In this document: positions 1-43,511 of the stretch, one piece after another
How positions within the stretch are numbered: position 1 is the first letter of the stretch
How the letters are laid out: each line of letters begins with the position of its first letter
Source: a virus
Taxonomy: Duplodnaviria > Caudoviricetes
Virus record (IMG/VR): IMGVR_UViG_3300032269_000372
Span: 1 to 43,511 of that record
DNA length: 43,511 bases
Direction: 5' to 3' (one strand)
Made by a program: the position numbers and the translations under genes
Notes under the pieces: model-generated
The model's database searches: none
The model's input: the letters and a program-made list of their open reading frames with translations, nothing else
What the model was told of the DNA's origin: nothing

Positions 1-3000
1 GGCCATTCGCATCTGCAATCTGCTGCCGTGCAGTCTCAATTGCCCGCCGCTTCTTAGACACGTCTTGATTGGGGAACGTCGAAGTCGCATCAACTGCTTC
101 CGGTTCGGGCATCGTCTGTGCGACGATTCCGCGCTGCTCAAGGATGCGCGCATGATCAGCATCAAGCGCATCCATCTTGGCGTCAATGTCGGCGATCTCG
201 GTGACGATGTTCTGCTCGGCTTCCGTCATGGGGAGCCGCTTCTTACGACGCTGCGCCGGCTTCTTGCCCTTCGGCTTTGTCAGCCAGGCATCCTCAAGCA
301 TGGGCTGGCGCTCGGTTTCAAGCGACGCCTTGCGTTTGCGAAGCGCAGACATCTCTCCCTCGACCTTCTGCTGTTCCTCAAACAGAATTGCGTCCCGCTC
401 AGCGCGGACTTCCGCCATGCCAGGGATGCGCGATTCTTCGCGACCAGCCGGCGAGCGAGTTCGACGAATGTTGTCGATCGCACCACGAACACGATTTTCC
501 GCAGCGGAATAGGACGCAGGATCCGTGCGCGCTGCATTTGGCTCAGGGAGTTCTGCAAGTTGCGTCCCGGCGGCAGAACCCAGTTCAACCGCAAGGGATG
601 AGTCGGAATCAATGATGTTTGCAATGTCTTGCTTGAGTGCGTCATCCGCTTCTTCAAGCAGGATTCCAATGGCATCGGACCGACCAACAACGTAATTGGG
701 ATCTTCAGTTGCTGCACGATCCGTCTCCTCAAGGATCGCGGCGGCCTCCATTACGGTTGCGTCTTGGTCACCGACGATTTCAGCAGCCCTTCTCCTTGCA
801 AGTTCAATCAGACCGCCAAAACTTTCTGTGTAATCGTATTCGCCCTCGCTGATGCTTCTGAGGAGTTCTTCACGATCCTTCTTGACATCAAACTCGCTGT
901 CGATGCCCGGAAGTTCCAGCGCAGTCAGCAAGTCAATCTTGTTTTCGAGCGTTGCTCCTTCGGCATACGCACGCTCAAGCGCATCAAAGTACATCTCTCG
1001 ATACTTGCGGCGGTTGAGGACATCCAATGAGTCCCGGAGGTCCTTCTTGAACTGCTCTCTGAGACGCTGTTCCTTTTGCTTGGCTTCGCGTGCAGCGACA
1101 TCTCCACGGGCAACCTGCGCAGTCTCAGTAGCAGACGCGGCAGCGCCAGGCTCGCGAGCCTTGACTGCCTCGACAAACTCCTTGTTCTCCATGCGCCGGA
1201 CGCGCTCTGCAAGCGTGGCATCATCGGACAGCGGCTGAGCGGCCTCCCGCTCGGCCTGCTGCATTAGACTGGAGATCACTCGCGCCTTGCGCGGGCTGAC
1301 GCCGGCGGCAACTCGCGCCACCTCTTCGGGACGAAGCCCGTTGAGTTGAGCAACGATCTCTGCCACGGCGTTGCGTCGCTGATTGTCAATTCCCTCCTGG
1401 AGTCGGCGCGGGCTATCCTTCTGCGCGGCAATTTGCTGCTTGACCTGTTCCTTGAAGTCAGCACGAAATTCCACGCTGTTATCGGAAAACGCGCGGCCAG
1501 CCATCTGCTCCATCATTTTGCGCGAAATGGGCTGTTCCATTCTTGCAAGACGAGCAGCAAGCGCCGGATTCTGCCGGACGAAATCCTTGACGGATTCTTC
1601 CTTCACACCCGTGGCGTCATACACATTCGTCGTGTTCAGCGCCATTGAATCTGCCGGGTCGCCTTCGACCTCAGTGACAAATTCCTTGGTTTCAGTTGCG
1701 GTCGCAGGATTGACCATTCCGGCCTGGGCGCCAAGAGAAGTACGAGCGCCCTCGGCATTTGTGCCACTTAGCAGTTGGCGGCGCGTCAACTCATCCGCAG
1801 CCATCGCCGGCGTGACCACAAACGACGTGCGGCCAAACTTTCCAACGCCAGCGGAAGTTCCACGGAGCATGGCGGTGGTGCTTCCGTCATTGCCACGCAT
1901 GATGATTTCTTGCAGCGTGTTCGTTTCGATGCCGTCCATGTCAAGAGCGGCGCCAAGCGTTCGCATCTGCTTGTTGTCGGCGGTGTTGTCAAGCGCCAAC
2001 TTCTTATGGGCATCAGCCACCCATTCCATCGCCTTCTCTGTTTCTTTCAGAGACAGATCTTCTCGCTTAAGAAGACGAGCAATCGGAGAGTCGGGAGGCA
2101 AGCGCCCAACAATCTGGTCAATTGCTCCAGTCACAGCAGCCGCGCCATTGCGCGTGGAGATTCCAGTGATGACGCCGGCAGGAACGCCGACAAACGCGCC
2201 AACAAGACCCGCATAGACGGCGTTTTTGAAAACATCCTTGACCCAATTCGGGTTCTGCTTGTAGAAATCGCGGAAAGCAGGATCATCAAGTCGATACATG
2301 TTGACGGCAAGATCCGTCACTGCCTGGTCTGCAAATTCCTGGATGCCTTCGGCAAACAGGCCGCGACTGCCGCCGCGCAACAATGTCTGCGCAGTTGTCA
2401 TTCCAGCAGCACGCCGAAGCGCGCTTTGACTCATTTCATCCAATTCGACGCCAACGCCAAACGGCTTCAGTACCTTTCCAACCGCCGCTTCGGTGACAAA
2501 CGTCGAGGCAAATGCCGTAGCAGCGTCACGGTTTGCGTTAGCCGCCGCTGCGCTAGCCGACATTCCGGCATCCATGTTCGTCAGCATCGACTCCTGCCAT
2601 TGAGACGATGCAGCCTGGCCCGCGCCGGTAGCCGCAAATACAAGCAACTCCCCAGCCGCAGAGCCGCCGCCGGTTAGCGCCGCAGCAGCAAACTGCCCAC
2701 CCAATTGCGGGATGACCTCAACGGCATCGAGAATGAAATTCTCAACCGCAGTGTTGTCGTTTGCGCCTGCGCCGATAGTACGCATGTACCGCGCCATATT
2801 CGCCGCGTCTTGCAGACGATCGGATCCATATTTGCCATCGGTCAGGTACGAAAGCGTTCCCGCCGGCATGTCGATGAGGAGAGACTGGGGAAGAAGCAAA
2901 AAATTCCCCACGCCCCTACTAAACCGCTGCCCAAGTTGCTTGGCGAAACCAACGCCAGTACCGCCATATACCTCGTTGTTGAAATACTCGTCGAGTTCAG

Positions 3001-3652
3001 GAGAGGGCTGTCCGGTGCGAGACATGCGCGCGAAGTTGCGCCGCTCCAGAACGCGCTCGGCCTCTGGATCATTTCTATACCCAAGAAGCGGCATGCCCAG
3101 GATGTCGCTTCGCAGGACTCCTTGCATTCGTTCCTGATTGTCAATTCCCTGCACCAACTGTGTCATCGACCGGCGTGGCGACATTGCCTCCAACTCTTGC
3201 TGAGTTGGGCGACCACGCGCAATGGCGTCTCTGTTGGCCTGCTCTTCTTCGCGCGCAACGTCCTGCTTCGTTGCCTGGTCCCAAAGCATGTCCACGTTGG
3301 AACCAAGTGTGGTATCAAGCCGCTGATCAATGAACTGATCGGGCGTCCCATTAGGGTCCATGAACCCATTGCGAGACGGGGCAAAATCATCCGGCTGCTG
3401 CTGCATACCAGCCTGCATCTGATCAAACTGGTCAGATGGCATCAGCCCTTGGATGTTGCGCACGGCGGCAGGGAACATCGACACCGGAGGCTGCTGATCC
3501 TGTTGAGGAGCAGGCTCGGCATTCGGGTCCATGCCATAGGACCCGGCATTCATCATTGCCGTCTCTTCCGGGGCCAGCGAAAATTCGCTGAACGGAATGT
3601 CCTGTGGGGTGGCGAACTGGTCTTCCGGTAGGAACGATCCGAATTGGGTCAT
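1..3652 (-). CDS. N-terminal part (~1217 codons, runs off the window edge) of a giant virion-associated/polyvalent protein
   Basis: Hand translation from ATG 3652 (MTQFGSFLPEDQFATPQDIP...RRAIETARQQIADANG) showed no stop down to base 1. Gly/Ala-rich hydrophobic stretches (AAAALTGGGSAAG, AGLVGAFVGVPAGVITG) resemble ejection proteins. Absent from the ORF track, presumably because it lacks a stop in the window. Confidence 0.85.
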   Translation of the reverse strand, partial: MTQFGSFLPEDQFATPQDIPFSEFSLAPEETAMMNAGSYGMDPNAEPAPQQDQQPPVSMFPAAVRNIQGLMPSDQFDQMQAGMQQQPDDFAPSRNGFMDPNGTPDQFIDQRLDTTLGSNVDMLWDQATKQDVAREEEQANRDAIARGRPTQQELEAMSPRRSMTQLVQGIDNQERMQGVLRSDILGMPLLGYRNDPEAERVLERRNFARMSRTGQPSPELDEYFNNEVYGGTGVGFAKQLGQRFSRGVGNFLLLPQSLLIDMPAGTLSYLTDGKYGSDRLQDAANMARYMRTIGAGANDNTAVENFILDAVEVIPQLGGQFAAAALTGGGSAAGELLVFAATGAGQAASSQWQESMLTNMDAGMSASAAAANANRDAATAFASTFVTEAAVGKVLKPFGVGVELDEMSQSALRRAAGMTTAQTLLRGGSRGLFAEGIQEFADQAVTDLAVNMYRLDDPAFRDFYKQNPNWVKDVFKNAVYAGLVGAFVGVPAGVITGISTRNGAAAVTGAIDQIVGRLPPDSPIARLLKREDLSLKETEKAMEWVADAHKKLALDNTADNKQMRTLGAALDMDGIETNTLQEIIMRGNDGSTTAMLRGTSAGVGKFGRTSFVVTPAMAADELTRRQLLSGTNAEGARTSLGAQAGMVNPATATETKEFVTEVEGDPADSMALNTTNVYDATGVKEESVKDFVRQNPALAARLARMEQPISRKMMEQMAGRAFSDNSVEFRADFKEQVKQQIAAQKDSPRRLQEGIDNQRRNAVAEIVAQLNGLRPEEVARVAAGVSPRKARVISSLMQQAEREAAQPLSDDATLAERVRRMENKEFVEAVKAREPGAAASATETAQVARGDVAAREAKQKEQRLREQFKKDLRDSLDVLNRRKYREMYFDALERAYAEGATLENKIDLLTALELPGIDSEFDVKKDREELLRSISEGEYDYTESFGGLIELARRRAAEIVGDQDATVMEAAAILEETDRAATEDPNYVVGRSDAIGILLEEADDALKQDIANIIDSDSSLAVELGSAAGTQLAELPEPNAARTDPASYSAAENRVRGAIDNIRRTRSPAGREESRIPGMAEVRAERDAILFEEQQKVEGEMSALRKRKASLETERQPMLEDAWLTKPKGKKPAQRRKKRLPMTEAEQNIVTEIADIDAKMDALDADHARILEQRGIVAQTMPEPEAVDATSTFPNQDVSKKRRAIETARQQIADANG

Positions 3653-22978: not shown

Positions 22979-22986
22979 AGGTTGTA

Positions 22987-22995
22987 AGTCTACCA
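22987..22995 (-). promoter_or_regulatory. Possible extended -10 (TGGTAGACT) for a near-leaderless late transcript
   Basis: TGn-TAGACT 8 nt upstream of ATG 22978; no SD sequence before that ATG. Confidence 0.35.
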
Positions 22996-23390
22996 CGAGT
23001 TGATTTATGGTGTGGGGGGTGGGGGTATATCTGGCGCGATGAACGTGCCGGTCATCGCGGTTTGATTTTCGCAGGCCCGGGTGTTGGCGCGCATGACGCC
23101 CGCGCCCCGGAGCGCGCACGTCGCGCGGTCGCGAGCGCGAGCCTCCCCACCGCGACCCCCGCGGCCGCCCAGCCGGCTCGCCCTGGCACCGGCCAGCCGG
23201 CACGGCGGCACGACCACCACCCCGGCGCGGTGCATGCGGTCAGGGCGGCGCGGTGCGCGTCATGCGGGTGGACCGTCCGGCGGGGGCGACCGGGCGCAGA
23301 GAGAGGAACGCGCGCGCATGCGCGTCGGGCTGAGGCGGGGTGGGCGGACTACCCCCCGCTCCCCACCCACCCCATGACCATGCCCATGGG

Positions 23391-23406
23391 GTCCGGCGCG
23401 CCGGAC
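23391..23406. repeat. 16-bp palindrome copy 5 (intergenic, 14 bp upstream of the early -35 box)
   Basis: Exact match. Confidence 0.97.
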
Positions 23407-23420
23407 TGGCAAGTTCACAC

Positions 23421-23449
23421 TTGACACTCCCGGCGCATGCGTGTATGCT
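23421..23449 (+). promoter_or_regulatory. Sigma70-like early promoter TTGACA-N17-TATGCT
   Basis: Perfect -35 box, 17-nt spacer and near-consensus -10 upstream of the first plus-strand gene. Confidence 0.8.
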
Positions 23450-23490
23450 CTCGCCATGGGCGCGTCGTGAGCCCTCCGTCACCACCCCCT

Positions 23491-23500
23491 ACTGGGAGAC
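23491..23500 (+). promoter_or_regulatory. Start-associated motif ACTGGGAGAC, copy 1
   Basis: 7 nt before ATG 23508. Confidence 0.85.
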
Positions 23501-23507
23501 TCTCGCC

Positions 23508-23888
23508 ATGCCTACCGTCCGCAAGCCCCGCCCCATCCAGTCCTACACCCCCTCGCCGTGGGCTGACCAGTACGTCCGGTTCGTGGAACTGGTCGCGACC
23601 ACCGCGCCAGATCAGGACGCCGCCATCGAAACCGTGACCCTCGCGTTCGGCTGCATGGCGCACCTCGCCAACATCGGCGGCGACGCCTACACCGTCGCGC
23701 GCAATGCCGCGATCGACTACGTCTGCTGCCTGTACTGGCGTCGGCTCGTCGTGCGCGCCTCCAACGTGCGCCCTCAAGACTTGGGACCCCATCAGACCGT
23801 GAGCGAGGCTCTCGTCGCATGCGGGGAGCGGCGCGCCACGCTGTGGGACGCCCTGAAGGACGTGCGCCCGTCCCTCGCCCTGACCTGA
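23508..23888 (+). CDS. Early hypothetical protein (126 aa)
   Basis: Preceded by promoter and motif; high third-position GC. Confidence 0.75.
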   Translation: MPTVRKPRPIQSYTPSPWADQYVRFVELVATTAPDQDAAIETVTLAFGCMAHLANIGGDAYTVARNAAIDYVCCLYWRRLVVRASNVRPQDLGPHQTVSEALVACGERRATLWDALKDVRPSLALT

Positions 23889-23967
23889 CGCGACCGCGCA
23901 CCGCGCACCGTCCCCGCGACGGTGCCGGATGCGACGGCCGCGTCGGCCCCGCACACTTCACCCCCTG

Positions 23968-23977
23968 ACTGGGAGAC
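23968..23977 (+). promoter_or_regulatory. Start-associated motif ACTGGGAGAC, copy 2
   Basis: 7 nt before ATG 23985. Confidence 0.85.
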
Positions 23978-23984
23978 ACTCACC

Positions 23985-25391
23985 ATGGCACGCAAGGCAC
24001 CCGTCACCGCATTCACCTCCGACCGTGGATCTCGCTACCTGTTCCTCAACGGCTCCGGCGTCCGCGACGCCTACAACAAGTGGGCGCAGGAGCGCGCCGG
24101 GTTTGGGTTCCCCCAGTCCCTCGCCAACTTCGCCAAGATCGCTCTGCTGCGGCGCCATGGCAATGGCCCGATCGAACTGGTGGTCAAGCCCTCCGCCACC
24201 TCCGCCTACTCCACCATCCGCATCGGCGCGGGAGCCGACAATGCCGGGACCGCGCTGCGCGACCTGCTGATCAGCGACGGCGGCATCGTGCCGGGCGTCG
24301 CGGCCATGGCACGGTCCGCTGTACTGGGGCAGGTCGATGAGTACGAAGCGCCGTTCGATTCGATCTTCGCCACCCTGAGCGCGGAGGCGCAGGAGGAACC
24401 GCAGGAGCAACCCAAGCGGCAGGAGCGGCGTCCCGACGTGGAGCGCGCGCCGCAGGGCGCACCGAACGGCGCCGGGCTACTGGACGCCTTCGGAGACTTC
24501 GGCAAGGCGATCAACGGCGCCATCGTCACCGTCGTGGAGCGCGCGATCGCTGACCTGCCCAAGGGCGGGAACGCCGTCACCGTCACCGTCCCCGGCTACA
24601 CCGCCGTCACCCTGCCCGACGGCGAGGTGATGCATGAGGAGTTCCCGTCCCTCCTGCTCCGCTGCACGGCGCAGAAGCCCAAAGACCGGAACGTCCTGCT
24701 CGTTGGCGCGCGAGGCTCAGGCAAGACGCATGCAGCCGAACAGGTGGCGCGTTCGCTTGGCCTCGCGTTCGACGCCGTCAGCATGAGCGGCGGGACGACG
24801 GAGCGCGCATTTTGGGGGACCACCACCATCCGCGACGGCAACATGGTTTGGAAGCCCTCGCGCTTCGTTGAGATGTTCCGCGCGGGTGGCGTGTTCCTGA
24901 TCGACGAACTCGACAAGGCGGACCCGACGGTCGTGACCGCCTTGAACATGGCTACCTCCAACGGCTACATCTGCCCCGTCGATTCCGACGAGCGCATCGT
25001 CCGCCACGACCAGTTCATCGTCGTGGCAGGTGCCAACGCCCTTGCGTCGGACCGCGCGTACACCGGGTCCACGCGACTGGACGCATCCTCCCTTGATCGC
25101 TTCGCCATCATGCGGTGGGACTACAGCCCGGCCATCACCGCGCGCGTCGCGGCTGAATGCGGCGACGCCCGTGCCGCTGACTGGATCGTCCGCCTGACCG
25201 ACGCCATGCGCGCCCGGATCGAATCCAAGGGATGGCGCGGCGAGGTGGAGTGGGGAACGCGCACCGTGGCGCGCGTCGCGTCGTGGATCCGCGCCGGGCA
25301 GTCCCGCGCCCAAGCCGTCGCCATGGAGACGGGCGCCATGGCACCGAACGTCCGGGCCGAACTGGAACAGGTGGCGCGCTCCGTCGCCTGA
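23985..25391 (+). CDS. MoxR/CbbQ-like AAA+ ATPase (468 aa)
   Basis: Walker A GARGSGKT, Walker B FLIDELDK, sensor-1 VAGAN, LDASSLDRF Arg finger, sensor-2-like GTR. Confidence 0.88.
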   Translation: MARKAPVTAFTSDRGSRYLFLNGSGVRDAYNKWAQERAGFGFPQSLANFAKIALLRRHGNGPIELVVKPSATSAYSTIRIGAGADNAGTALRDLLISDGGIVPGVAAMARSAVLGQVDEYEAPFDSIFATLSAEAQEEPQEQPKRQERRPDVERAPQGAPNGAGLLDAFGDFGKAINGAIVTVVERAIADLPKGGNAVTVTVPGYTAVTLPDGEVMHEEFPSLLLRCTAQKPKDRNVLLVGARGSGKTHAAEQVARSLGLAFDAVSMSGGTTERAFWGTTTIRDGNMVWKPSRFVEMFRAGGVFLIDELDKADPTVVTALNMATSNGYICPVDSDERIVRHDQFIVVAGANALASDRAYTGSTRLDASSLDRFAIMRWDYSPAITARVAAECGDARAADWIVRLTDAMRARIESKGWRGEVEWGTRTVARVASWIRAGQSRAQAVAMETGAMAPNVRAELEQVARSVA

Positions 25392-25407
25392 CGCTACAAT
25401 CGCACCT

Positions 25408-25417
25408 ACTGGGAGAC
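25408..25417 (+). promoter_or_regulatory. Start-associated motif ACTGGGAGAC, copy 3
   Basis: 6 nt before ATG 25424. Confidence 0.85.
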
Positions 25418-25423
25418 ACACCG

Positions 25424-26386
25424 ATGACCACCAAGAACACCACCCCTGAGATGACCGAATCCGCCTACCGCGCCATGCTTGATCGGCGCGACTGCCCCCC
25501 GACGATCGTGTCGTGGGGGAAGGACACGACCGTCCTGACGTACCAGTCCCTTGCGTCGGCGTTGGACCACGCCCGTCGCGGCACGGACTACATGCATGAG
25601 GAGGCGCGCGCCGCATGGGAGACGTACCGCGAGGCGCACAACGGCAAGGGCCGACGCGACCGCGACTGGCACGGCGGCGTGTGGTCGTTCGCTGACTGGG
25701 AGCGCACCACCAAGGCGCCACCTGCCGCGCTCGTTGCCAACGTGGACGCATGCCTCGCCGCGCTTGACGCCGTGCCGCTGCCGATGCGCGAGGCGCCCCG
25801 TCGGCGGAACGTGCGCCACCTTGACGAGGGCGACACGTTGGACGCCTTCCGCATGGTGGAGGATCACAACCTAGACCGCGCATGGTCTGAGCGGAGGCGC
25901 AGCACCAGGGCGAGGCCGTCCCTTCGCATCGTCCTCAACGGCGGCATCAACTGCAACCTAGACGAGCGCAGCCTTGCATGGCGCGGCGCTGCCGCCCTCG
26001 CGATCGCCCGGCGCGCGGAGGACTGCGGTGCCGACGTGGAGATCATCGTCGCCGTCAACTGGACCCGCTGCGCGACCGACACCATGCGCGACGTGGTCGC
26101 ATCGTGGTGCGTCAAGGAACGCGGCGCATACGCGGACCGCGACACTCTCACCGCGTACTGCTGCCACTTTGCATCGTTCCGGTGGTTCGCGTGGTGCCTC
26201 ATGGCGCAGAACATGCCGGGCCACCGGGTGTGCAGCGCATGGGGCCGCATGGAGCGCCTCGCCGGGCGCGTCGATCACCTGAAGGCAGACGTGATCGTGG
26301 ACTACGGCGTCACGACGCGCGAGACTGCAATCGCCCTGATGCAGAAGGCCACGGAGATCATCGAAGCGCAGCGGGGCGCGGACTGA
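25424..26386 (+). CDS. Putative VWA-like partner of the MoxR-type ATPase (320 aa)
   Basis: Adjacent to the AAA+ gene; DEGDTLD then beta strand LRIVLNGGINC and helix WRGAAALAIARRAE, reminiscent of a degenerate VWA core. Confidence 0.6.
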   Translation: MTTKNTTPEMTESAYRAMLDRRDCPPTIVSWGKDTTVLTYQSLASALDHARRGTDYMHEEARAAWETYREAHNGKGRRDRDWHGGVWSFADWERTTKAPPAALVANVDACLAALDAVPLPMREAPRRRNVRHLDEGDTLDAFRMVEDHNLDRAWSERRRSTRARPSLRIVLNGGINCNLDERSLAWRGAAALAIARRAEDCGADVEIIVAVNWTRCATDTMRDVVASWCVKERGAYADRDTLTAYCCHFASFRWFAWCLMAQNMPGHRVCSAWGRMERLAGRVDHLKADVIVDYGVTTRETAIALMQKATEIIEAQRGAD

Positions 26387-26466
26387 CGCGGCACGGGTCG
26401 CATGCACGGCGGACCTGCCCGTCGTGCATGCATCCCGCATCGTGCGGACTGTTGACTGAACCTCTG

Positions 26467-26476
26467 ACTGGGAGAC
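26467..26476 (+). promoter_or_regulatory. Start-associated motif ACTGGGAGAC, copy 4
   Basis: 7 nt before ATG 26484. Confidence 0.85.
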
Positions 26477-26483
26477 TCACACT

Positions 26484-26780
26484 ATGCCTGATGATAAGTC
26501 TGACCGCCTGACCACCGACGATTTGGACTACGCGCTTCACCTCGCGAAGACGGAGCCGCGCGCTAGCGTGTCCTGCTCCCTCACCGTCCTGTACCGCGTG
26601 TTCCTGTCCATGGACTGGGTCGAAGACAATGCCCTGCGCGTCATGCTCGCGAAGATCCTTCACATCAACGAATGCGCCGGGATTCGCGAGGGCATGACCG
26701 ACTACGAGAGCGAGATCTACTCGCGCATGCTTGAGCGCGTGTCGAAGCCCAGCGCCAAGCGCCGGAAGGGCGGTGCATGA
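26484..26780 (+). CDS. Early hypothetical protein (98 aa)
   Basis: Motif-preceded ORF. Confidence 0.75.
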   Translation: MPDDKSDRLTTDDLDYALHLAKTEPRASVSCSLTVLYRVFLSMDWVEDNALRVMLAKILHINECAGIREGMTDYESEIYSRMLERVSKPSAKRRKGGA

Positions 26781-26875
26781 TGGGCGCCCTGCTCGAATTC
26801 GTTGCGTTCACCGGCGTCGCATGCGGATGCATCGGCGCGCTTGGATACTTCATTGAACGGAGGACTGACCGATGA
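26777..26875 (+). CDS. 32-aa TM peptide MMGALLEFVAFTGVACGCIGALGYFIERRTDR
   Basis: ATGA overlaps at both ends; hand translated. Confidence 0.65.
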   Translation: MMGALLEFVAFTGVACGCIGALGYFIERRTDR

Positions 26876-27117
26876 GAATCGACAAAGCAGCAGAGACTGG
26901 CATGCTCCCGCCGTGTGGCATGGGGCGGATCGTTCGCAGCGTTCGGACGCCCATGGGCGTCCAACATGCATGGCGCTATGGTGACCTTGCATGGATCACC
27001 TACGGGGACCGAGTGCGCATGGTCGCACCAGTCGCCGTCGTGATCGACGTGATCGAACGCGAGGCCGTCGCGAATGCGCAGCCGCGCACGACCGGGTGGG
27101 AGGTGGTCGATGTCTGA
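26872..27117 (+). CDS. Hypothetical protein (81 aa)
   Basis: GGAGG RBS; coupled to neighbours. Confidence 0.65.
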   Translation: MRIDKAAETGMLPPCGMGRIVRSVRTPMGVQHAWRYGDLAWITYGDRVRMVAPVAVVIDVIEREAVANAQPRTTGWEVVDV

Positions 27118-27631
27118 CCGCATCACCATCACCATCCCTTTGCACGTCGCGGAGTACCTGCGGCGGCAACTGCCCAACCGCATCGAACGTGACGAGTCCG
27201 ATTCGGAGTGGAACGCCGAACGGAACGACGGGACGCCGCGCGAGATCTGCGAGTCGTTGGCGCGCGAGTTTGCCGCCGACGCCCTCGCATACAGGGCAGT
27301 ACTGGACGCGATTGAGGAGTCGTTGGTGGAGAAGCCCATGGACCTGCATGACTGGGCGCGCCGCTACGAATTGATCGGCGGATCCGGGCAGGACTGCTGC
27401 GCGATCGACGGCCTCGCGTGTGGGTTCCCGAACTGGGAGCGCGCCGTGGACCTTGCCCAGTCAATGGGACTGGGCAAGGATCACGTCTGGACAATCAGGT
27501 ATGACGACGGCGAAGGCGACGACGACGATTCGACGTGGACCATCACGCCCGGCATGGGCGTCGTCAACGTCGTCGGCTACGTCGTGACCAAGCGCCGCCC
27601 CGAAGGAAAGGAGTTCGTGCAATGGGACTGA
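27110..27631 (+). CDS. Hypothetical acidic protein (173 aa)
   Basis: GGAGGT RBS before ATG 27110. Confidence 0.7.
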   Translation: MSDRITITIPLHVAEYLRRQLPNRIERDESDSEWNAERNDGTPREICESLAREFAADALAYRAVLDAIEESLVEKPMDLHDWARRYELIGGSGQDCCAIDGLACGFPNWERAVDLAQSMGLGKDHVWTIRYDDGEGDDDDSTWTITPGMGVVNVVGYVVTKRRPEGKEFVQWD

Positions 27632-27915
27632 ACAACGACACGGAGTGCTGCGACCATTGCGGCAAGCCTCTCACCCGAAGGACCCGGCACGTCCTGTACG
27701 AACTGCCGATAGACGTGCATTCGGCGAACGCGGGAGAGTCTGCGGTGTTGTGCGCGCGTTGCCATGGCGCCGTGCGATCGGCGGACACGCTCATGGAGGA
27801 GGCGCACCGCATCATGGAGGAGGCGGGTGCCGCATACAAGCCCGACGAACTGGACGCCGATGGGCGCCCCGGTTTGGGTTTCGGGCCGGGCAACAAGGGG
27901 GGCGACCATGCATAG
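27622..27915 (+). CDS. Zn-finger (CxxC...CxxCH) protein, 97 aa, possibly degenerate HNH-like
   Basis: AAGGAG RBS; CDHCG and LCARCH motifs. Confidence 0.65.
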   Translation: MGLNNDTECCDHCGKPLTRRTRHVLYELPIDVHSANAGESAVLCARCHGAVRSADTLMEEAHRIMEEAGAAYKPDELDADGRPGLGFGPGNKGGDHA

Positions 27916-27994
27916 CACCCTCGCCATGTTCCTAGTGGTTGCTCTCGTGGTGTTTGCTGTTACAATGCACCAAGCGTTCAAGCAGTCGCGCTAG
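27908..27994 (+). CDS. 28-aa TM peptide MHSTLAMFLVVALVVFAVTMHQAFKQSR
   Basis: Overlaps the previous stop; AAGGGGG RBS. Confidence 0.55.
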   Translation: MHSTLAMFLVVALVVFAVTMHQAFKQSR

Positions 27995-28019
27995 GCGCCT
28001 GCATCAAAGCCCCCGGAAG

Positions 28020-28058
28020 CCCGCCCATGCATGCCTCGCGCTGCATGGGCGGGTTGTT
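28020..28058 (+). terminator. Probable terminator of the early operon
   Basis: 12-bp stem CCCGCCCATGCA/TGCATGGGCGGG followed by TTGTT. Confidence 0.55.
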
Positions 28059-28194
28059 CATGGGCATGGCATGCGCATGGCATGGGCATGCAGGGTGAAG
28101 TACATGCTTCACCGCCCGGAACCGGCTGCCCATGCGCCGCCGGTCCCGGCAGCCGCGCGCCATGCACCAGGGCGGCGGCGGGGGTCGGCGGCGT

Positions 28195-28239
28195 GGCAAG
28201 CAATGACCGATTCCACGGGCAAGCAATGACCGATTCCAC
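28195..28239. repeat. Tandem direct repeat, 2 x 22 bp GGCAAGCAATGACCGATTCCAC
   Basis: Identical copies at 28195-28216 and 28218-28239. Confidence 0.95.
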
Positions 28240-28287
28240 CGCTTCCAGAAAGTGGAAGTTTATCTTCTGGTTTTTGGCTGATGGGTA

Positions 28288-28315
28288 TTGACCGATCGAG
28301 ATGAATCTGTATAGT
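28288..28315 (+). promoter_or_regulatory. Sigma70-like promoter TTGACC-N16-TATAGT for the replication block
   Basis: Near-consensus boxes with AT-rich upstream sequence, ~90 nt before the HTH gene. Confidence 0.65.
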
Positions 28316-35338: not shown

Positions 35339-35581
35339 TCAGGATGATGCGAGATAGGCTCCCATGACTCTACCGCCTGCGTCCACCTTCTGTGACTCCA
35401 TGCGCGGCCTGGTTCCAAGCCTGATAGCGCGCTCGGTGGGAGTAAGTTCAAACCACAGCATCGCCATGGCCTCGACTACGTCGATGCTCTTGACATTGTT
35501 TGCGACGCCATCGACGGCAATCTTCGCGTACGTCTCTTCCCTGATTCGGACCGATGCTGTGTTTGGCTTTTTTGGGTTCAT
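35339..35581 (-). CDS. Small ribbon-helix-helix-like DNA-binding protein (80 aa)
   Basis: ATGA overlap with the giant gene; TASVRIREETYAKI strand-helix pattern. Confidence 0.55.
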   Translation of the reverse strand: MNPKKPNTASVRIREETYAKIAVDGVANNVKSIDVVEAMAMLWFELTPTERAIRLGTRPRMESQKVDAGGRVMGAYLASS

Positions 35582-38500
35582 TCTCCAAGTCCTTCTGCGT
35601 CTGCAATACGCCTTGCCACCACGCCGGATTCGATGTCGAGCCGGCGCAGCAGTTGCGGCATCTGCCGCGACTGCAACTTGTTCTTGGCGCGGCGCTCAAT
35701 GTCACGCATGTTCATGGCTGCCATCGGGTACAGCGAGTTAAACTCGCGCAGCACCTTCTGAGCCGACGCCCTGTCGTTTCCTGCAAGGTAAGTAGCCGCC
35801 TCGTTCGCATATCGATCGACCTCATTGCGGATGATGCGGAGCCGCTGGTATTCCATGGACCATACCGTCTCATTGACGGTGCGGAATGCCAGGGCTTTGA
35901 GGAACTGCTCCTCTGGATCCAACTTGAATTTGAGCCGACCCGTGGCGTCGTACTCTGCATTGTCACCGGAGAACAACTTCCATAGGTTGACGACCTGCTG
36001 AGCGGCCGGGCTGCTGTCCAAGAGGCCACGCGTAAGACGTTCACCGGCGCCCATGGGGATGGCAGTCTCTGCGGTCAGGTTGGTCATCAATTGGATGGCC
36101 GTGTTCACGGTCGGGCCGGCAATGGTTGCTCCGATCTTCTCGTACACGTTCCGGCCAAACGGCTTCTGCCAGATCGAGATCGAGCCTGACAGGTCGATTC
36201 CGATGGCAGCCGGCAGGCCCATCATCGCAACATCGGCCATGCTCTCCGAGCCAAGTTCGCTCTTCAGCCACTGCCTCAACTTGTAGTTGAGATCGTCTGC
36301 GCCTTCCTTGTCTCCGAGATACAGGCTGCGGATCAGGCTTGCGGCAGACAGGCCGATGGAGGACTGGATGCCACCGAGCAGGCTCATGGTCGCCATGTAC
36401 CTGGCGACGCCAGAGTAATTGCCGCGCTGGAACTCGTTGACCAGTAGACCGGTCGTGTTGATGGCGAACCGGCGGTACTGGAGGGAGGTCGATGCAATCG
36501 GACCGCGAAGCAGCCACGGCACGTTCGCCTTGGTGTAGTAGAACTGCGTGTACACGTTGCCGTAGACGCGGCCATACCGAACGGCCTCTTCCTCGGTCAT
36601 GCCCATGCGGTACTTGGCATGGTGGTACATGGCGACGAACGCGAAGTTCTGGTTGCGGGCTTCCGACGACGGGTTGAACGTCTCGTTGGTCTGCTTGTAG
36701 ATCTTGTCGTTCATCGTGGAGACAAAGCCCATGATGTCCGATCCAAGCACACGGTCCTCGCCTTCGCGGAACCGAGCCGAGCCATCAAAGAACCCGTGCT
36801 TGCGAAGGACGACCTTGCCTTCCTCGCTGTTGTAGAACGAGACGGCCTCCATGATGCCCTTCTCGCCGAGGATCGGATACACCGTTTGTATCGGCTGGAA
36901 CGAGTTGACGATCTGCTGACGGACCGTGAGCAACTGCCGCGCATAGTTGAGTGCGCGGATCGAACCAAGCCAACGGCGGGTCGGGAACGGGGAGACGATC
37001 TTGCCGACAACCGGGATCGCCCGGATCATCGAGTCGATCGCTGCCTCGGTCATGGTCGGCGCGGTGAACAGCGTGTGCCGCATGGACTCGGCCAGGTAAT
37101 CGCCCCATCCCGGCGTCTTCCGACGGATGCTCTCGATCTTGGGGGTCAGTTTCCTGACCATGTCGCCACCCATGCGCCAACGGTTGTGCAGGCGCTCGGA
37201 CATGTTCCACACCATCGGAAAGTCGGTGACGTAGCCGCCGGCTCCCGTGCGTTCCATGAGAGGCGCATAGAACGGGCGCTTGCTCGTCTTACTGCCAACG
37301 ATGCCGCGCATGGCGTCAGCCACCTCGTCACGGTACGCGCCAGTGGCATCAGCAAGCATCTTCTCAAGCCGGCGGCGCTGAGCGTCGGACAGCCTGACGG
37401 CGTCGTCTGGATCGATCCTGACGGCTGGCTCGGCAACCAGTTTCTTGTACATGCCAGGGTTTGCCCGCTTGAACGCATACAACTTCTCGTATGCCTCCGG
37501 CTCGGTGATGGCGCTTCCGATGATCGTCCTGGTGTCGTTGGCGTCATAGCCAACCAACTTGAAGTCGCCGTTGAACCAGTGGTAGAAGTGCGCGTACTGG
37601 CGACCCCAGTTGTCCGGGATCATCTTGTTGACGAGCATCTCGCGAGCCTGGTCCATGGTAACCGTGCCGTCTGCGGTCTTGATCATCTTGCGACCACGAT
37701 CGCTACGGACCACTTCCCACTCCATGCCGTTCTGCGCAGCACGAGCAACGAGCCTCGTGGAGTTGTCGCGCTTGAGCATGCCACGGATGCTCTCGCGCTT
37801 GGTCTCGATGATCTCCTCGCGTCGGACTTCCTCGCGCTCCTTGAACCACTTCAGGGCATCGCGCCATGCCTGCGACTTTGACTGGAACTCCGGGTTCGTG
37901 TCGATGGTCTCGGGCGGGTGGTACATGTCCATGTGCCGCGAGAACTCCTCGCTGTCGCGATCTTCCTTCGGGATGGACTCCCAGACGGCCGTCGCCTCGT
38001 CCTGCCGGCTCTTGGTGACGAGGTTGCGCTCCATGTCCATGTTGATCATGTCTTCGACCACGGAGATGACCTCCGGGTTCTTGGACGCGATCGCAAGATT
38101 GAGGGGAGCAGCAATGAACTTCCAGAAGGGCGAGATGTCGGCGGCAGCCGTGACAATCTCGATGTCATCGGAATCCTCAACCGAAATCGGCTTCGGACCG
38201 AATTTTCCTGCGAGTTGCCGAGCCGTGCCAAGCCATGCGCGACCAAGAGCCGCAAGCCTGTCTTCGCCTTCAGATCGAACGGCACTTCCACCGATAGCCT
38301 GGCTCAGCGCCATGTCAGCAGCAACCGCGTCAGCGGGCTGATACACGGATGCAGAATCACGGAGCGACTGGACTAGCGGGCTGGTTCCGTCGGCTCCTTT
38401 TGCTGCTCTTGCGTCGATGGCGGGGGCAGCGGGTTGCCCTCGTCGTCCAGAAGTGCTTCCTCGGCCGACAGCAGGTCGTCCGCCTCCTGTTGCTCGTTGT

Positions 38501-41500
38501 TTGGATACCAGGGCGCGTTCATCGTCAATCCTCTTGATTTCCTTGTTGATCGCCGCGCGCTTCACATTGCGCTCGGACACGAATGCTATCGCAGCCTGCT
38601 CGTAATCGGGAAGGCCACCCTTGTCGTATGTCAATTCATCCGTGTCTTCGTCCACCTTGGCAACGTCATAGAGACGCTTCTCGGGGTACCAATAAACGGC
38701 CTGAAGATCCGCCATGGTCAGGTCTGGATAGTCCTTGCGAAGCCCATCAAGGACGCCCTGCATGACCATTCGGATGCGATTGCGCACGCGGGCAGATCGA
38801 GGCGACTCAATAGATCCATCGACCGACTTGGCATGCGTATTCGCCATGCGACGCAGGTTGTCGCCGTTTGCCATCGACGCCAGTTGATCGCGGAACTCTT
38901 CCTTCACAGATCGGCGTGCAATGTTCTGCGCAATTTCGGTCAGCCGGCCACTTGCCATCTTGCCGCCGGCAAACTTGGTGAGATCCTCGCCAATAAGATC
39001 GCCAATTTGCCGAAGCGACCTGGGGCTTTTCTGGGACATGGTCTTGAGCATGTCGCGCATCTGCGTGCGCTGATCCGCAATGTTCTGCGGGTTGGCATCA
39101 ATCAAGAGACCGATCCAGCGACCCCAGGTTCGCATGAACCATCGGTCCATGGTGAGTTGCTCGTAGTTGCCATACAGGTTCGCGAAGAACCCGTTGCCGA
39201 TCTTTGGACCGAAGATGGCTGCGCCATACACGACGGTGTTCATGCCCTCGCCGGACACCTTCTTGCCGGTCATCTTCTCAATGTCTCGGACGGTCCGCTT
39301 CTCCTGCATGAAGCCCATGACCCAGTCGATGCCATGCTTGGCGATCATGCGGTTGACCCGCTTCATGCCGTCGTTCATGGCTTTCTTCGAGCCGCCTTCG
39401 CCGATGTTCACCGGCATGCGGCCCGTACGCTTGTAGTACTCGTATGCCTGGGCGGCAAGCACGAAGTTGCGCGGCACGTCCATCTGGTTGGACGTAATCG
39501 CAAGCGCCATCTTCATGATGAACTGAGACCGTTCGTCGGCCTTGAGTTCCGGGTACACGAGCGACATGACGGCAAGAGCCTTCTTGACCTTCTCGTCATA
39601 CCAGCCGACCGCGTTGTTCTTCATCGCAAGCGCGACCTTGGCATCCTTCATCGCGACTCTGACGATGTATTCATCGACCGCAGCAGAATCCTCTGCCGTA
39701 AGATCGACGCCGGCTTTCTTGGCGGATGCCTGAACAGCGCGCTGAATCTCCATTTTGAAGTCGCGGATCTTGTCGAACTTCTTGCCGCGCGCCATCTTGA
39801 CGATGTTCTGAACGCCGGCCGTCCTAGCAACCTCGTCAGGAATTGGCCTGATTGACTGGTCAAGTCTTGAGCCAAGAAGGTCATCAGCCGCGCGACCAAG
39901 CCGCTTGCTTTCCTGCGTGGTCCTATCGGCAAGCGCCATCAACTCCTGGAAACTATACGTCTCCATGATTTGCGACATTGCCGCAGACGTTTTTGCAAGC
40001 GCGGAGTTGCCAGGGTCAGCAGGCATGCCGAGCAACAGTCTTTTGATTGCTGTGTACAACCGGTCAAGCAACGACGTCTCGCGCTTTGCTTGCGGAGTCG
40101 TATCAAGTCGAACCAATGTAAATGCCTGATCTCCGTCATACGGAAACCGGGCCAAGTAATTCCGCATGTCTGGTGACGATGTCGCCTGCGCTATGAACTC
40201 GTCAATGTTCGTCAGTCCATAGGCGATATTGTCGAGTTCAAATGGCTGAATTGTGTAATTTCCAGACAGATTCTTGTAGTCCGACGACTTAAGCATCTGA
40301 GACCACAGCGGACGCGCCTTGTCAAATTCGTGTGCGGCCCTTCTTCCGAACATCACGCTTTTGTTGTCTACACCTGATCCAAATCCACTGTTTGATTGCG
40401 CTTCAATCGCGCTGAACCGTGGGCCGACAGCAAGATAAATCTGAATGATGTCCTTAATTGCATCATTCTTTGTGCTGTCCATGATGTCCTGTAGCCGGTT
40501 GATGTATTCCTTTCCACTAAGCGTCGAAAGCGGGTTGAGGATCTTGGGCGAAAATGTCCGGTACTCCTTGTCCTCATTGTCAATTGCCGACGAAGTCAAT
40601 CCATGCGCAAGTTCATGAATAAACGTATTCAGATTGTTGTACTCGGACATGTACAAGACGCTTGTGCCATCGCTCTTGTCTTGCATAAAGGCGCGGCCAA
40701 GATTCGACGGATCTCGATAAATGACCGCCGATGTCAGTAGCGACTTGTTCTTCAACAAGAGTTCCTGAAGCAAAGCAATCTTTGCGTCAATTTGATCGAC
40801 CTGGGACCGATTCGTCGGATCTGCTCTCAGCAAAGCATTGCGATCCTCTAAAGCAGCCAGGACAAAATCATCAGATACTCTCTTTGCCAAATCAAACGAC
40901 TTGATTTTTACAAACGCCCCACGTCCGTCGTTTGAACTAACGCGAATAACATCGCCGACGCGGGGTTCGTAGGTTCGCATATCGCGCGCGTCTGCTTCCT
41001 TGCGGACAGCCTCCGAATACTCGGATTCATACGCCGGCGGAGCGATGCTCTGAGAGATTGGCTCTTCATTCTCTGCCGACTGCGCACGGCGAAGCAGATC
41101 TGCGCCAGCCTTTGTGTCTGCAACATCTAATGGGTAGGTGTAAACCGAACGAACAATAGTGAAGATCTGCATCTCATTGAAGGCCGGTTTGCCATCAAGA
41201 AGATCAGCAACCAATCGGAATGCCTTTGCAGCAAGAACGGCACGCATCTGCAACATCTCGGCGACTTGGCTCTGAACGACACCGGCAAACTGGGATGGGA
41301 AAGCCACCATCTTTGTCCCATAGCCCGATGCTTCCAATGCCCGGTTTGCGTCAGTGCTGTCAGAAAACTCCTCAAGTTCGCTTGCGACCTTTTTCAGAAT
41401 CGGGGACAGAGACTGCCCATATGGGCGCCCCTTATTGCTTACCCCATATTGAAGCACTCCAGACCCCTCATATTGAGGGGCAAGGTATCTGACAAGTTGC

Positions 41501-43511
41501 GATCCCATTTCGTATCGAATGGACGCGATTTTCTCAGCAACTTCTTTATCGGATGACAAAGTTCCTAGCCTTGTTGCGGCCACGACTTCGTCCACAAATG
41601 CATTCATCTGATTTTGAAGCGCGAAACCGGAAATGCCAATCAGATTCTGTTTCTCGCGTCCGCGCTGCAACAGCAATTGAGAAGTGAAAGTTTGTCCCAT
41701 TGGATTTTGTCGAGGATCCAGTAGTGCTGGATTCTCAACGAAATCTAGTGATGTAAATGACTGACCGAGAAACTTTGCATACAGCGCGTCTGTATCAAAC
41801 ACCAACTCTCCGCGCGCGCCCAGATTGAAGAATGTATTGTCTCCGCCGCCACCAATACCCATGGTGCCGCCGTAATCAAACACAACGCCTTCGGTATCTA
41901 CGTTGCCGCTGTGGAGATCGTTTGCAATCAGCGTGTTGGCAATGCCTGCCTGCCTCGAAATCGTCAACAGATCAAATCCACCAGGACGATCAACATTACC
42001 AGCCCAAAACTTGAGACCCTGTCGGATCTTCGTAGCAAATCCGCTGACAAGCGTTGATGAACGACCAACGTCGCTATCTGGATTCAGTTCAGATGTTTGA
42101 ATTGCTACGTTGTTCGGCATGAACGCCGGAAGGCCAAGCGCCTCGGCAATCAGGTTTGCGGCCATCTCGTTCTGAAGCATCAGGCGCCGTCGGTCCAAAC
42201 CAGTTTTGTCAATAAGGTCAAGAACCTTGCTAGGGTCGATCGGGACAAGGTGTTTAACGTAATAATCCTGTCCGTCAGCACCAGTCATCATTGCTGCGCT
42301 AGTTGCGCCACGTCGATCACGAAAAGTTTCCGGGTCCCTTTGGAATTTGTTGATCGTGTCGGTCGACAGCGGAAGCGGCTGTGGGTTGTCAAACGTCGCG
42401 ACGTTGCGGATCGCTTGTGAAATCGACGACTCTTGAATGCCAGGGCGCTTTGCCTTCATTGCCGCTTTGGCCTGGTCTCGGATCGACTCTTCCTGGTCCT
42501 CAACGGACACAAGCGGAGCAAGCGCTTTGCGAACGGACTGGTCAAGCGCAGGAATGCGCGCGCTCACGTCGGCGGCCGTCATCGGATTCGCGTCGATATC
42601 AGCCATGGCAATCTTGCCACGCTTTGCATCCATCATCTGCACAAGCGCACGGGCAATCAACTGCTGCGCCGCATGGCGCTGACGCGGGTTGCCAAGTTCT
42701 GCCGGGTTGTCGGCAAACCGACGAAGGACCCGGACTTGCTCGTCGTTCATGCCGCGCGCCTTCTTGGTCAAGCCGGGGATAGCCTCGAAGGCATCCATGA
42801 TGCCCGATGCAATCTTGGCAAGCAAACCGATGGCCGGCTTTGTATCAGCAATCCTGCGCAGTTCATCCACGTCAATCTTGCCGGACTCATCAACCACGGC
42901 AACGAACGCGCCATCCATCAGCATCTCTGCAAGGTTGGCAACTTCCTCTTCCATCAACTTCGCCTCGGGCAGGCTGATGCGCTGCGCGCTTGCCATGCGC
43001 CGGCGGAACTCCTTGCGGTACTTCGACGCAGCATCGCTGGTCGGCTCGGAAAGCGAGGAGAGATCCTGGCTATCAAGGGCGGCCATCAACTGCTCGGGCA
43101 TGTTGGCCCGCAACAGCGCGGCATCCTCGGACTCGTCGTTGCGCGCAACCCACAGAATTGCGTCTCGGTCCGTCTCGTTCTCGGAATTGAGCATGACAAG
43201 TCCGGCGCGCCGGACTGCGGCCATTCTGTTCTGACCCTCCAAGTTCGCCATGTACGTCTTGCGCAACTCGCGCAGGGCGCGCGGCATCTTGCGGTTCAGT
43301 TGCTTGTACAGCGAGACAAACGTCTCCGGGCTTGTCTTGGCAATGTGATGCATCGTCTCGTGAAGCGCGATTGCAAACATCGCGGACGGACGATTGATGT
43401 CCTGGGCAGACAGGAAGACAATGCCTTCCTTGTATGCGCCGGCAGTCCTAGACGCCTTCGGGGTCTGGATGAACACCACGGTGATGCCCAACTTCTTGCC
43501 GAAGTTGACAA
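35578..43511 (-). CDS. C-terminal part (>2640 aa) of the giant polyvalent virion protein: two HExxH metallopeptidase-like, one kinase-like, one HhH glycosylase-like and a C-terminal helical region
   Basis: Open to the window edge. HETMH (43348-43362); YYVK..NEMAA..DLHSGN..DYGG (~41860-42270); HELAH (40603-40617) with DEFIAQA; WY..GPKIG..TMDRW..DLQAVYW (~38690-39605). Confidence 0.88.
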   Translation of the reverse strand, partial: VNFGKKLGITVVFIQTPKASRTAGAYKEGIVFLSAQDINRPSAMFAIALHETMHHIAKTSPETFVSLYKQLNRKMPRALRELRKTYMANLEGQNRMAAVRRAGLVMLNSENETDRDAILWVARNDESEDAALLRANMPEQLMAALDSQDLSSLSEPTSDAASKYRKEFRRRMASAQRISLPEAKLMEEEVANLAEMLMDGAFVAVVDESGKIDVDELRRIADTKPAIGLLAKIASGIMDAFEAIPGLTKKARGMNDEQVRVLRRFADNPAELGNPRQRHAAQQLIARALVQMMDAKRGKIAMADIDANPMTAADVSARIPALDQSVRKALAPLVSVEDQEESIRDQAKAAMKAKRPGIQESSISQAIRNVATFDNPQPLPLSTDTINKFQRDPETFRDRRGATSAAMMTGADGQDYYVKHLVPIDPSKVLDLIDKTGLDRRRLMLQNEMAANLIAEALGLPAFMPNNVAIQTSELNPDSDVGRSSTLVSGFATKIRQGLKFWAGNVDRPGGFDLLTISRQAGIANTLIANDLHSGNVDTEGVVFDYGGTMGIGGGGDNTFFNLGARGELVFDTDALYAKFLGQSFTSLDFVENPALLDPRQNPMGQTFTSQLLLQRGREKQNLIGISGFALQNQMNAFVDEVVAATRLGTLSSDKEVAEKIASIRYEMGSQLVRYLAPQYEGSGVLQYGVSNKGRPYGQSLSPILKKVASELEEFSDSTDANRALEASGYGTKMVAFPSQFAGVVQSQVAEMLQMRAVLAAKAFRLVADLLDGKPAFNEMQIFTIVRSVYTYPLDVADTKAGADLLRRAQSAENEEPISQSIAPPAYESEYSEAVRKEADARDMRTYEPRVGDVIRVSSNDGRGAFVKIKSFDLAKRVSDDFVLAALEDRNALLRADPTNRSQVDQIDAKIALLQELLLKNKSLLTSAVIYRDPSNLGRAFMQDKSDGTSVLYMSEYNNLNTFIHELAHGLTSSAIDNEDKEYRTFSPKILNPLSTLSGKEYINRLQDIMDSTKNDAIKDIIQIYLAVGPRFSAIEAQSNSGFGSGVDNKSVMFGRRAAHEFDKARPLWSQMLKSSDYKNLSGNYTIQPFELDNIAYGLTNIDEFIAQATSSPDMRNYLARFPYDGDQAFTLVRLDTTPQAKRETSLLDRLYTAIKRLLLGMPADPGNSALAKTSAAMSQIMETYSFQELMALADRTTQESKRLGRAADDLLGSRLDQSIRPIPDEVARTAGVQNIVKMARGKKFDKIRDFKMEIQRAVQASAKKAGVDLTAEDSAAVDEYIVRVAMKDAKVALAMKNNAVGWYDEKVKKALAVMSLVYPELKADERSQFIMKMALAITSNQMDVPRNFVLAAQAYEYYKRTGRMPVNIGEGGSKKAMNDGMKRVNRMIAKHGIDWVMGFMQEKRTVRDIEKMTGKKVSGEGMNTVVYGAAIFGPKIGNGFFANLYGNYEQLTMDRWFMRTWGRWIGLLIDANPQNIADQRTQMRDMLKTMSQKSPRSLRQIGDLIGEDLTKFAGGKMASGRLTEIAQNIARRSVKEEFRDQLASMANGDNLRRMANTHAKSVDGSIESPRSARVRNRIRMVMQGVLDGLRKDYPDLTMADLQAVYWYPEKRLYDVAKVDEDTDELTYDKGGLPDYEQAAIAFVSERNVKRAAINKEIKRIDDERALVSKQRATGGGRPAVGRGSTSGRRGQPAAPAIDARAAKGADGTSPLVQSLRDSASVYQPADAVAADMALSQAIGGSAVRSEGEDRLAALGRAWLGTARQLAGKFGPKPISVEDSDDIEIVTAAADISPFWKFIAAPLNLAIASKNPEVISVVEDMINMDMERNLVTKSRQDEATAVWESIPKEDRDSEEFSRHMDMYHPPETIDTNPEFQSKSQAWRDALKWFKEREEVRREEIIETKRESIRGMLKRDNSTRLVARAAQNGMEWEVVRSDRGRKMIKTADGTVTMDQAREMLVNKMIPDNWGRQYAHFYHWFNGDFKLVGYDANDTRTIIGSAITEPEAYEKLYAFKRANPGMYKKLVAEPAVRIDPDDAVRLSDAQRRRLEKMLADATGAYRDEVADAMRGIVGSKTSKRPFYAPLMERTGAGGYVTDFPMVWNMSERLHNRWRMGGDMVRKLTPKIESIRRKTPGWGDYLAESMRHTLFTAPTMTEAAIDSMIRAIPVVGKIVSPFPTRRWLGSIRALNYARQLLTVRQQIVNSFQPIQTVYPILGEKGIMEAVSFYNSEEGKVVLRKHGFFDGSARFREGEDRVLGSDIMGFVSTMNDKIYKQTNETFNPSSEARNQNFAFVAMYHHAKYRMGMTEEEAVRYGRVYGNVYTQFYYTKANVPWLLRGPIASTSLQYRRFAINTTGLLVNEFQRGNYSGVARYMATMSLLGGIQSSIGLSAASLIRSLYLGDKEGADDLNYKLRQWLKSELGSESMADVAMMGLPAAIGIDLSGSISIWQKPFGRNVYEKIGATIAGPTVNTAIQLMTNLTAETAIPMGAGERLTRGLLDSSPAAQQVVNLWKLFSGDNAEYDATGRLKFKLDPEEQFLKALAFRTVNETVWSMEYQRLRIIRNEVDRYANEAATYLAGNDRASAQKVLREFNSLYPMAAMNMRDIERRAKNKLQSRQMPQLLRRLDIESGVVARRIADAEGLGE
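43200..43215. repeat. 16-bp palindrome copy 7 (in the giant gene, read as VRRAGL)
   Basis: Exact match, in a different reading frame from the other coding copies. Confidence 0.97.

Follow-up and report, generated by a model that had tools for sequence, protein, structure and literature searches.

How might several enzymes carried in one giant phage protein be set free from one another, and what in the protein would mark the places? The question is raised by IMG/VR virus record IMGVR_UViG_3300032269_000372, a 43.5-kb stretch (43,511 nucleotides, hereafter the window) whose minus strand holds a 2,643-residue open frame with an open 5′ end (43509->35578). Judged by its sequence, this frame is only the C-terminal part of a phage polyvalent protein of ~3,880 residues; residue numbers below start at its first residue. 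A short peptide of the form [IL]xQ[SA][IVL] stands six times at joints between its modules, and the original prediction took it for a recognition site for self-processing by the HExxH domain or domains of the protein, and/or a junction at which cargo is swapped. Comparison with relatives reveals that the spelling of the peptide is uniform across the joints of one protein, switches at all joints together between lineages, and follows the constant chassis of the protein rather than its cargo. The six peptides are probably sites at which the first HExxH domain, termed domain A, would cut the protein.

Six peptides at the joints of a giant protein

All six copies lie on the minus strand where they had been placed, starting at residues 322, 363, 818, 1216, 1712 and 1735. 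Site 1 (LDQSVR, residues 322–327, 42529..42546) directly follows domain A, in a segment with pLDDT<50. Site 2 (ISQAIR, residues 363–368, 42406..42423) precedes cargo B, has an aligned counterpart in L001, the nearest outgroup, and is predicted at moderate confidence as a short helix. Between B and cargo C lies site 3 (ISQSIA, residues 818–823, 41041..41058), a coil with pLDDT about 27 at the N-terminal edge of its model, and directly before cargo D lies site 4 (LDQSIR, residues 1216–1221, 39847..39864), a coil at the edge of a segment with pLDDT<50; in the predicted models, sites 1, 3 and 4 thus fall in low-confidence linker. Site 5 (LVQSLR, residues 1712–1717, 38359..38376) is a short helix of moderate confidence after a disordered stretch, and site 6 (LSQAIG, residues 1735–1740, 38290..38307) stands directly before the constant C-region E. 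Sites 1 and 2 form a pair, as do sites 5 and 6, so the six sites mark four joints.

The frame contains 6 matches to the pattern; 5,000 shuffles averaged 0.52, and not one had as many as 6. It was, however, picked post hoc, and in a look-elsewhere control 46 of 300 shuffles yielded an equally enriched pattern of the same shape; the single-protein count alone is therefore not significant, and it is on evidence from relatives that the junction feature is real. A seventh match occurs at residue 254 of the N-terminal part (frame 3652->2), away from the cargo joints. The picture of a single giant frame with six boundary copies holds for the positions, but the frame is a C-terminal part and the seventh copy sits at no cargo joint. 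Over 33 scanned open reading frames (ORFs), a slightly wider pattern matched once in the N-terminal part and once in the likely portal gene, with no match in capsid or scaffold. An unrelated five-fold pattern, Pro-x-Asn-hydrophobic-small, at giant-protein residues 465, 934, 1366, 1474 and 1802, has an enrichment above the best pattern of any of 300 shuffles; it lies inside domains, is kept at two of five places in L001, and is probably due to chance.

The search for relatives returned 23, and 20 proteins (L001 included) share the N-region, domain A and region E with the window. All follow one plan: the N-region and HExxH domain A are constant, the cargo after them can be swapped, and the C-region is again constant. 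The variable stretch between the constant parts ranges from 113 to 1,747 residues. The motif flanks cargo in every relative having an intact HExxH domain A. The site after domain A is kept in 16 of the 20, partial in one and lost in three, while the site before E is kept in all 21 close relatives. In a motif scan of the kind that had been proposed, 18 relatives with Gln at the motif centre contain 76 motifs in 13,726 cargo-region residues (5.5 per 1,000) and only 13 in 27,532 and 7 in 15,446 residues of the constant parts (0.47 and 0.45 per 1,000), in rows that are related rather than independent, ten of them near kin. With the sites masked, an alignment end fell within 15 residues of 76 of 101 sites, compared with 19.5% of positions lying that near a site, a count that masking can itself inflate by breaking alignments there; in the reverse direction, 79 of 239 clusters of alignment ends lay near a site.

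Unbiased discovery of same-shape motifs ranked the motif first in 2 of 13 proteins (P0005 and P0018) and missed it where the centre residue was mixed. A loose template sought near the start of D in unrelated chassis found none in most proteins, against a background of about 0.7 matches per 190 residues, and missed L001's own site. Cargo is exchanged between the sites: in P0024, an ART-PolyVal module occupies the place between the two sites that hold cargo C in L001. Two relatives display further arrangements. P0010 has an empty cassette at residues 1546–1622, where about 75 residues hold four sites, one of them imperfect, and cargo is absent between A and E; P0025 has cargo B deleted internally at residues 138–180, both flanking sites remaining.

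The site spelling changes at all joints together

L001, 74% identical to the window over D and E, has six sites at aligned places, and in all six the central Gln has given way to a hydrophobic residue, Phe in five and Met in one. The background is far lower, with 16 of 382 aligned Gln (4%) between the window and the L001 record becoming F, M, L or Y. P0008 likewise has a hydrophobic centre at 7 of 7 sites (Leu five times, Phe once, Tyr once), and supported branches of the domain A tree force its switch and that of L001 to be two separate changes. No concerted switch was found in other genes. The sixth, or tail, residue also differs by lineage: one set has Arg or a neutral residue but no acidic one, and another has mostly Asp or Glu and never Arg, as classed by eye rather than tallied by script. 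What the joints share across the family is thus a template, hydrophobic-x-centre-[Ser/Ala]-hydrophobic-tail.

ART-PolyVal-type modules reveal what the spelling follows. Their closest cross-lineage matches are 27–54% identical, and in 13 of 13 proteins their flanks are of the host type, Gln in a Gln chassis and Phe or Leu in a hydrophobic chassis (one downstream flank was not picked up).

Conceivably, the likeness of the sites could reside in their DNA, the peptide being a by-product of a recombination junction for cargo swapping. Modules are indeed gained and lost between sites, as in the empty cassette of P0010, and to this extent the proposal of a swap junction holds. However, the six sites share no DNA identity in excess of synonymous recoding (P 0.54 in the window, 0.15 in L001), the change from Gln to Phe alters two or three codon positions per site, and the conserved DNA at cassette ends that characterises site-specific recombination cassettes was not found; moreover, P0025 lost its module internally while both flanking sites stayed. 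With site DNA showing no likeness beyond that required by the peptide, gene conversion and a recombinase site both fail to account for the concerted change, and the sites appear to be kept at the protein level rather than as a recombination signal. Recombination as sole cause is contradicted by this lack of excess identity and is very improbable, though the peptide may still assist swapping as microhomology. A chance pattern, which the equally enriched shuffles would allow, is refuted by the comparative data (positional conservation, twelve-fold cargo-region enrichment and concerted switching) and retains next to no probability. Dispersed sites that change together, with incoming cargo taking on the local spelling, argue instead for one reader acting at the protein level.

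Domain A as candidate reader, and its rivals

Which of the two HExxH domains might this reader be? Cargo C, the second, has an intact HExxH, but it is present in only 5 of 20 relatives with domain A and is itself exchanged as cargo; the 15 that lack it all keep at least three sites. C is thus a most improbable reader and domain A the candidate general one. The idea that the peptide is recognised by the HExxH domain or domains gains support from three things: the sites are conserved at aligned joints, they change in concert, and they co-vary with domain A. The second domain drops out as general reader.

Domain A (residues 1–321, 42547..43509, minus strand) is constant and zinc-metallopeptidase-like (MPTase-like), with its HExxH at residues 50–54 (43348..43362). 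His50, Glu51, His54, Glu188 and Glu189 are invariant in 21 of 21 close rows. In a model of moderate confidence (mean pLDDT 67), two clear strands and a short third precede the HExxH helix (residues 41–59), which is followed by a Glu-bearing helix (182–205); domain A thus combines the HExxH helix and the conserved Glu on a later helix by which zincin-like MPTases are recognised. The sites track this domain, as in a self-processing polyprotein. The distant relatives P0022, P0023 and G003, all without HExxH, have no site directly before E, and in G003, estimated to be complete, there is neither A nor cargo, the N-region joining E directly at a joint without a site. The giant protein of G003 comprises an ORF of 1,458 residues in L125 and one of 888 residues in L127, both on the minus strand.

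Two positions of domain A co-vary with the spelling. Residue 23 (43441..43443), immediately before the invariant Gly24, follows the charge of the tail, being Arg in 12 of 12 acid-tail rows and Ala or Thr in 9 of 9 Arg-tail rows; it is the only one of 323 columns that is basic in every acid-tail row and non-basic in every Arg-tail row. The acid-tail rows represent two lineages, and on the tree each tail label calls for two changes. Obtained later via the capsid, G004 and G009 also have Arg at 23, and the three sites in each terminate in Asp or Ser; acidic tails occur with Asn or Gln at residue 23 as well. Residue 93 (43231..43233) follows the centre: Gln in 20 of 21 Gln-centre rows (the other is a gap), and Val, Val and Leu in the three hydrophobic-centre rows, a pattern that rests on two events and in which 93 is the only such invariant column of 323. 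Residue 57 was considered and rejected: it is an invariant Ala across 19 Gln-type rows and differs in both hydrophobic ones, but the Gln-type P0027 and P0028 have His there. By the usual zincin topology, residue 23 likely lies on the substrate-binding edge strand.

In the mechanism that these observations suggest, domain A would act as an active zincin, bind each site along its edge strand, and cut in the head or after ejection, leaving E, the N-region joined to A, and the cargo enzymes set free. A changed pocket would then oblige every site to follow, and newly gained cargo would take on the local spelling. More speculatively, by analogy with thermolysin-type zincins, the cut may fall before the second hydrophobic residue, with the tail meeting residue 23 and the centre meeting residue 93. 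A broader proposal is tentative and on balance doubtful: that phage polyvalent proteins harbour a private, evolvable protease code, in which a zincin and all its sites co-switch specificity under a two-residue key (23 for tail charge, 93 for the centre), so that close relatives would carry mutually orthogonal protease–site pairs and a captured enzyme would be licensed for release by the local tag.

Several observations weigh against cutting by domain A. No cleavage product is known. Neither sequence nor fold links domain A to a peptidase family or a solved zincin: it has no Pfam match, fold searches of a 420-residue moderate-confidence model list no zincin, sequence searches against solved structures were empty, and the Atlas neighbours of P0027's domain A are unnamed or LPD23 (18%). 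Sites 2, 5 and 6 are predicted, at moderate confidence, as short helices rather than open coil, site 1 is missing from three of 20 relatives, and P0023 has two loose matches elsewhere despite lacking HExxH. P0027 and P0028 keep Gln-type sites despite an HExxD. The co-variation draws on few independent lineages, 38 columns separating the tail classes and 19 the centre classes, and residue 23 was spotted by eye before the column scan; the boundary count, as noted, may be inflated by masking. Finally, the virion RNA polymerase of phage N4 has such an HExxH domain and is reported to be intact (PMC13434306, PMC5512222). Independent lineages for domain A are scarce: single-protein scans with A gave 0 viral loci in one case and 9 representatives in another, and the P0028 query returned only itself. 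In both P0027 (near 750) and P0028 (near 786), domain A is short, without a ~90-residue insertion, and its HExxD is followed three residues later by a His, by sequence possibly a rearranged zinc site.

Some of these points would sit easily with the main rival, a tag that is recognised but left uncut: domain A, acting as a pseudo-protease, or some other part of the constant chassis would grip the joints so that the modules fold, are packed or are threaded through the ejection channel in order. Such a tag accounts equally well for the concerted spelling and for its loyalty to the chassis, and fits all the sequence data; the persistence of sites beside HExxD variants, the three helical sites, and the intact N4 polymerase, modelled as beads on a string (PMC13434306), are what it would lead one to expect. 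It leaves less reason for the catalytic Glu and putative zinc ligands to be invariant in 21 of 21 close rows, or for paired sites around short spacers to resemble trimming, and cargo enzymes with different targets would gain from release, as argued in PMC5512222; we regard it as unlikely, while giving it real weight. Less likely again, a protease outside the giant protein, from the host or encoded elsewhere by the phage (a prohead protease, for instance), might make the cuts. A single outside reader would equally force concerted change, host switches could produce lineage-specific spelling, and prohead proteases cleave ejection proteins in other phages (PMC10052503). However, no protease gene was identified in the 27–28 ORFs scanned (most of them without a family), capsid and scaffold lack the motif, and other genes do not switch; the co-varying residues, moreover, sit in domain A, and relatives without HExxH have no site before E. 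Cutting by domain A itself thus stays the probable reading.

Cargo, genome setting and place among polyvalent proteins

Of the module order originally proposed (peptidase, kinase, second peptidase, glycosylase, C-terminal region), the two HExxH motifs and the glycosylase-like fold stand, and the kinase is a lead only. Cargo B (residues 369–817, 41059..42405) is a candidate kinase-like module, of PI3/PI4-kinase or HipA type, by its Atlas feature neighbours, the nearest clusters with a family carrying PF00454 (38% of members) and PF20613 (21%). Cargo C (residues 824–1215, 39865..41040) has its HExxH at 40603–40617 and is swappable. Peptidoglycan degradation has been proposed for the metallopeptidase of the phi24B polyvalent protein (preprint 10.64898/2026.04.10.717836), and by analogy C could have such a role. 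Cargo D (residues 1222–1711, 38377..39846) consists of a folded core, about 1224–1673, and a disordered linker. Its model, with pLDDT mostly >85, has a helix-hairpin-helix (HhH-GPD) DNA glycosylase fold, matching 3n0u_A (Z 10.2, rmsd 4.1, 197 aligned) and other HhH glycosylases (Z 7–8.4). Foldseek gave no match for a combined C and D model, and the fold search of C no zincin row; Pfam, PHROGs and NCBIfam named no peptidase, kinase or glycosylase in the window's giant protein. Region E (residues 1741–2643, 35578..38289) is 56–97% identical in close relatives and weakly matches NF032893 PLxRFG/tail-700 (E 1.5e-12, 46.9 bits, below the 100-bit cut-off). All these modules lie on the minus strand.

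The N-terminal 1,217 residues of the giant protein, its constant N-region, are encoded at 2..3652 on the same strand in a frame (3652->2) whose 3′ end is open where it runs off the left contig end. Its product is 93% identical to residues 1–1218 of P0001 and 54% identical to residues 16–1201 of a full-length 3,862-residue protein in L001, which matches the product of 43509->35578 from residue 1227 on. Because the L001 protein spans both frames, the contig is evidently broken inside one gene of ~3,880 codons; comparison with P0001 puts ~24 residues at the break. The window ends (1 and 43511) are accordingly a cut within the giant gene, with no terminal overlap, and with ~24 codons missing the record represents a nearly complete, permuted genome. 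In family scans, the minus strand showed terminase, capsid and tail-protein genes, and the plus strand showed replication genes. The giant gene displays traits of its class: a large multi-domain product whose domain combinations vary among relatives; a position downstream, on the same strand, of genes matching terminase, capsid and tail proteins; and, in relatives though not in the window's own protein, the typical polyvalent domain ART-PolyVal PF18760, which exceeded the cut-off in 8 of 15 scanned relatives and also in P0024 and P0028. Following head and tail genes in one transcriptional arm, it would encode a protein packed in the virion and ejected.

Several features accompany this gene. 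Directly upstream, an 891-residue Ala/Gln/Pro-rich ORF (3661–6336, minus strand) has no family match, is 51% identical in G001 and lacks the junction motif; it is likely a second ejected protein. Three tail-region ORFs on the minus strand (6605–7450, 11245–12972 and 12976–13521) have no tblastn match in G001, though their neighbours do, and are likely variable host-recognition proteins. Between the divergent gene arms, about 22300–28300, a stretch without family matches is GC-rich (64–69% vs 50–60% elsewhere) and likely comprises early genes and a control region. No prophage relative of the window's capsid was found among the genome contigs searched. Two loci, L129:2856-10796 (+) and L133:7306-15936 (-), encode HExxH proteins distantly resembling domain A; their C-region is a different one, and a tag of another kind, Phe-Asp-x-Ser-hydrophobic, seems by eye to occur twice.

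The polyvalent class itself, including phage-type members with a zincin-like MPTase, and the proposal that the MPTase processes the protein into functional units, are already known (Iyer et al. 2017, PMC5512222). The window's protein resembles that class as described there, being a giant multi-domain protein of the phage structural arm, with HExxH and a downstream Glu and with mosaic cargo that in relatives includes ART-PolyVal (PF18760); unlike it, its own domains match no Pfam polyvalent family. The main text of PMC5512222 names no site motif: "linker", "boundar", "interdomain" and "recognition site" have 0 occurrences there and "cleavage site" occurs only in a reference title, while its supplements, outside the scope of this comparison, could hold such alignments. 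Beyond that account, the window family provides a candidate site that drifts in concert, together with two residues that are candidates for setting specificity. By its description in the same paper, phage P1 DdrB is likewise MPTase-bearing and is reported to be processed before packaging, with autoproteolysis proposed, but it yields one processed product, its cut site unstated in that description, and has ParB-like cargo. N4 virion RNA polymerase gp50, as PMC13434306 describes it, shares with the window's protein its scale (~3,500 residues), ejection, an N-region that binds membrane, enzyme cargo, an HExxH domain and a C-region that is large and helical; it differs in being intact as a recombinant protein, in having its HExxH domain after the cargo, and in that description's lack of a repeated joint motif.

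What is new here is that close relatives differ by a switch at six of six sites, that a second switch arose independently, that one of two proteases is excluded, and that candidate specificity residues emerge; a literature search found no paper naming processing sites in polyvalent proteins, subscription journals and the 2017 supplements lying outside its reach. RNA-virus polyproteins use Cys or Ser proteases rather than a zincin, have a fixed gene order rather than swappable cargo, and are unrelated in sequence. The likeness, an analogy drawn in PMC5512222, is that of one embedded protease reading a repeated short site between functional units. The family supplies exact candidate sites, a candidate enzyme and, in two domains that are 65% identical, a naturally occurring swap of specificity, so that testing the self-processing idea would take two small proteins and a handful of peptides. 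Were the idea true, it would explain how one injected giant protein delivers several anti-host enzymes, would make the mature products predictable from sequence, and would offer a source of compact, orthogonal site-specific proteases.
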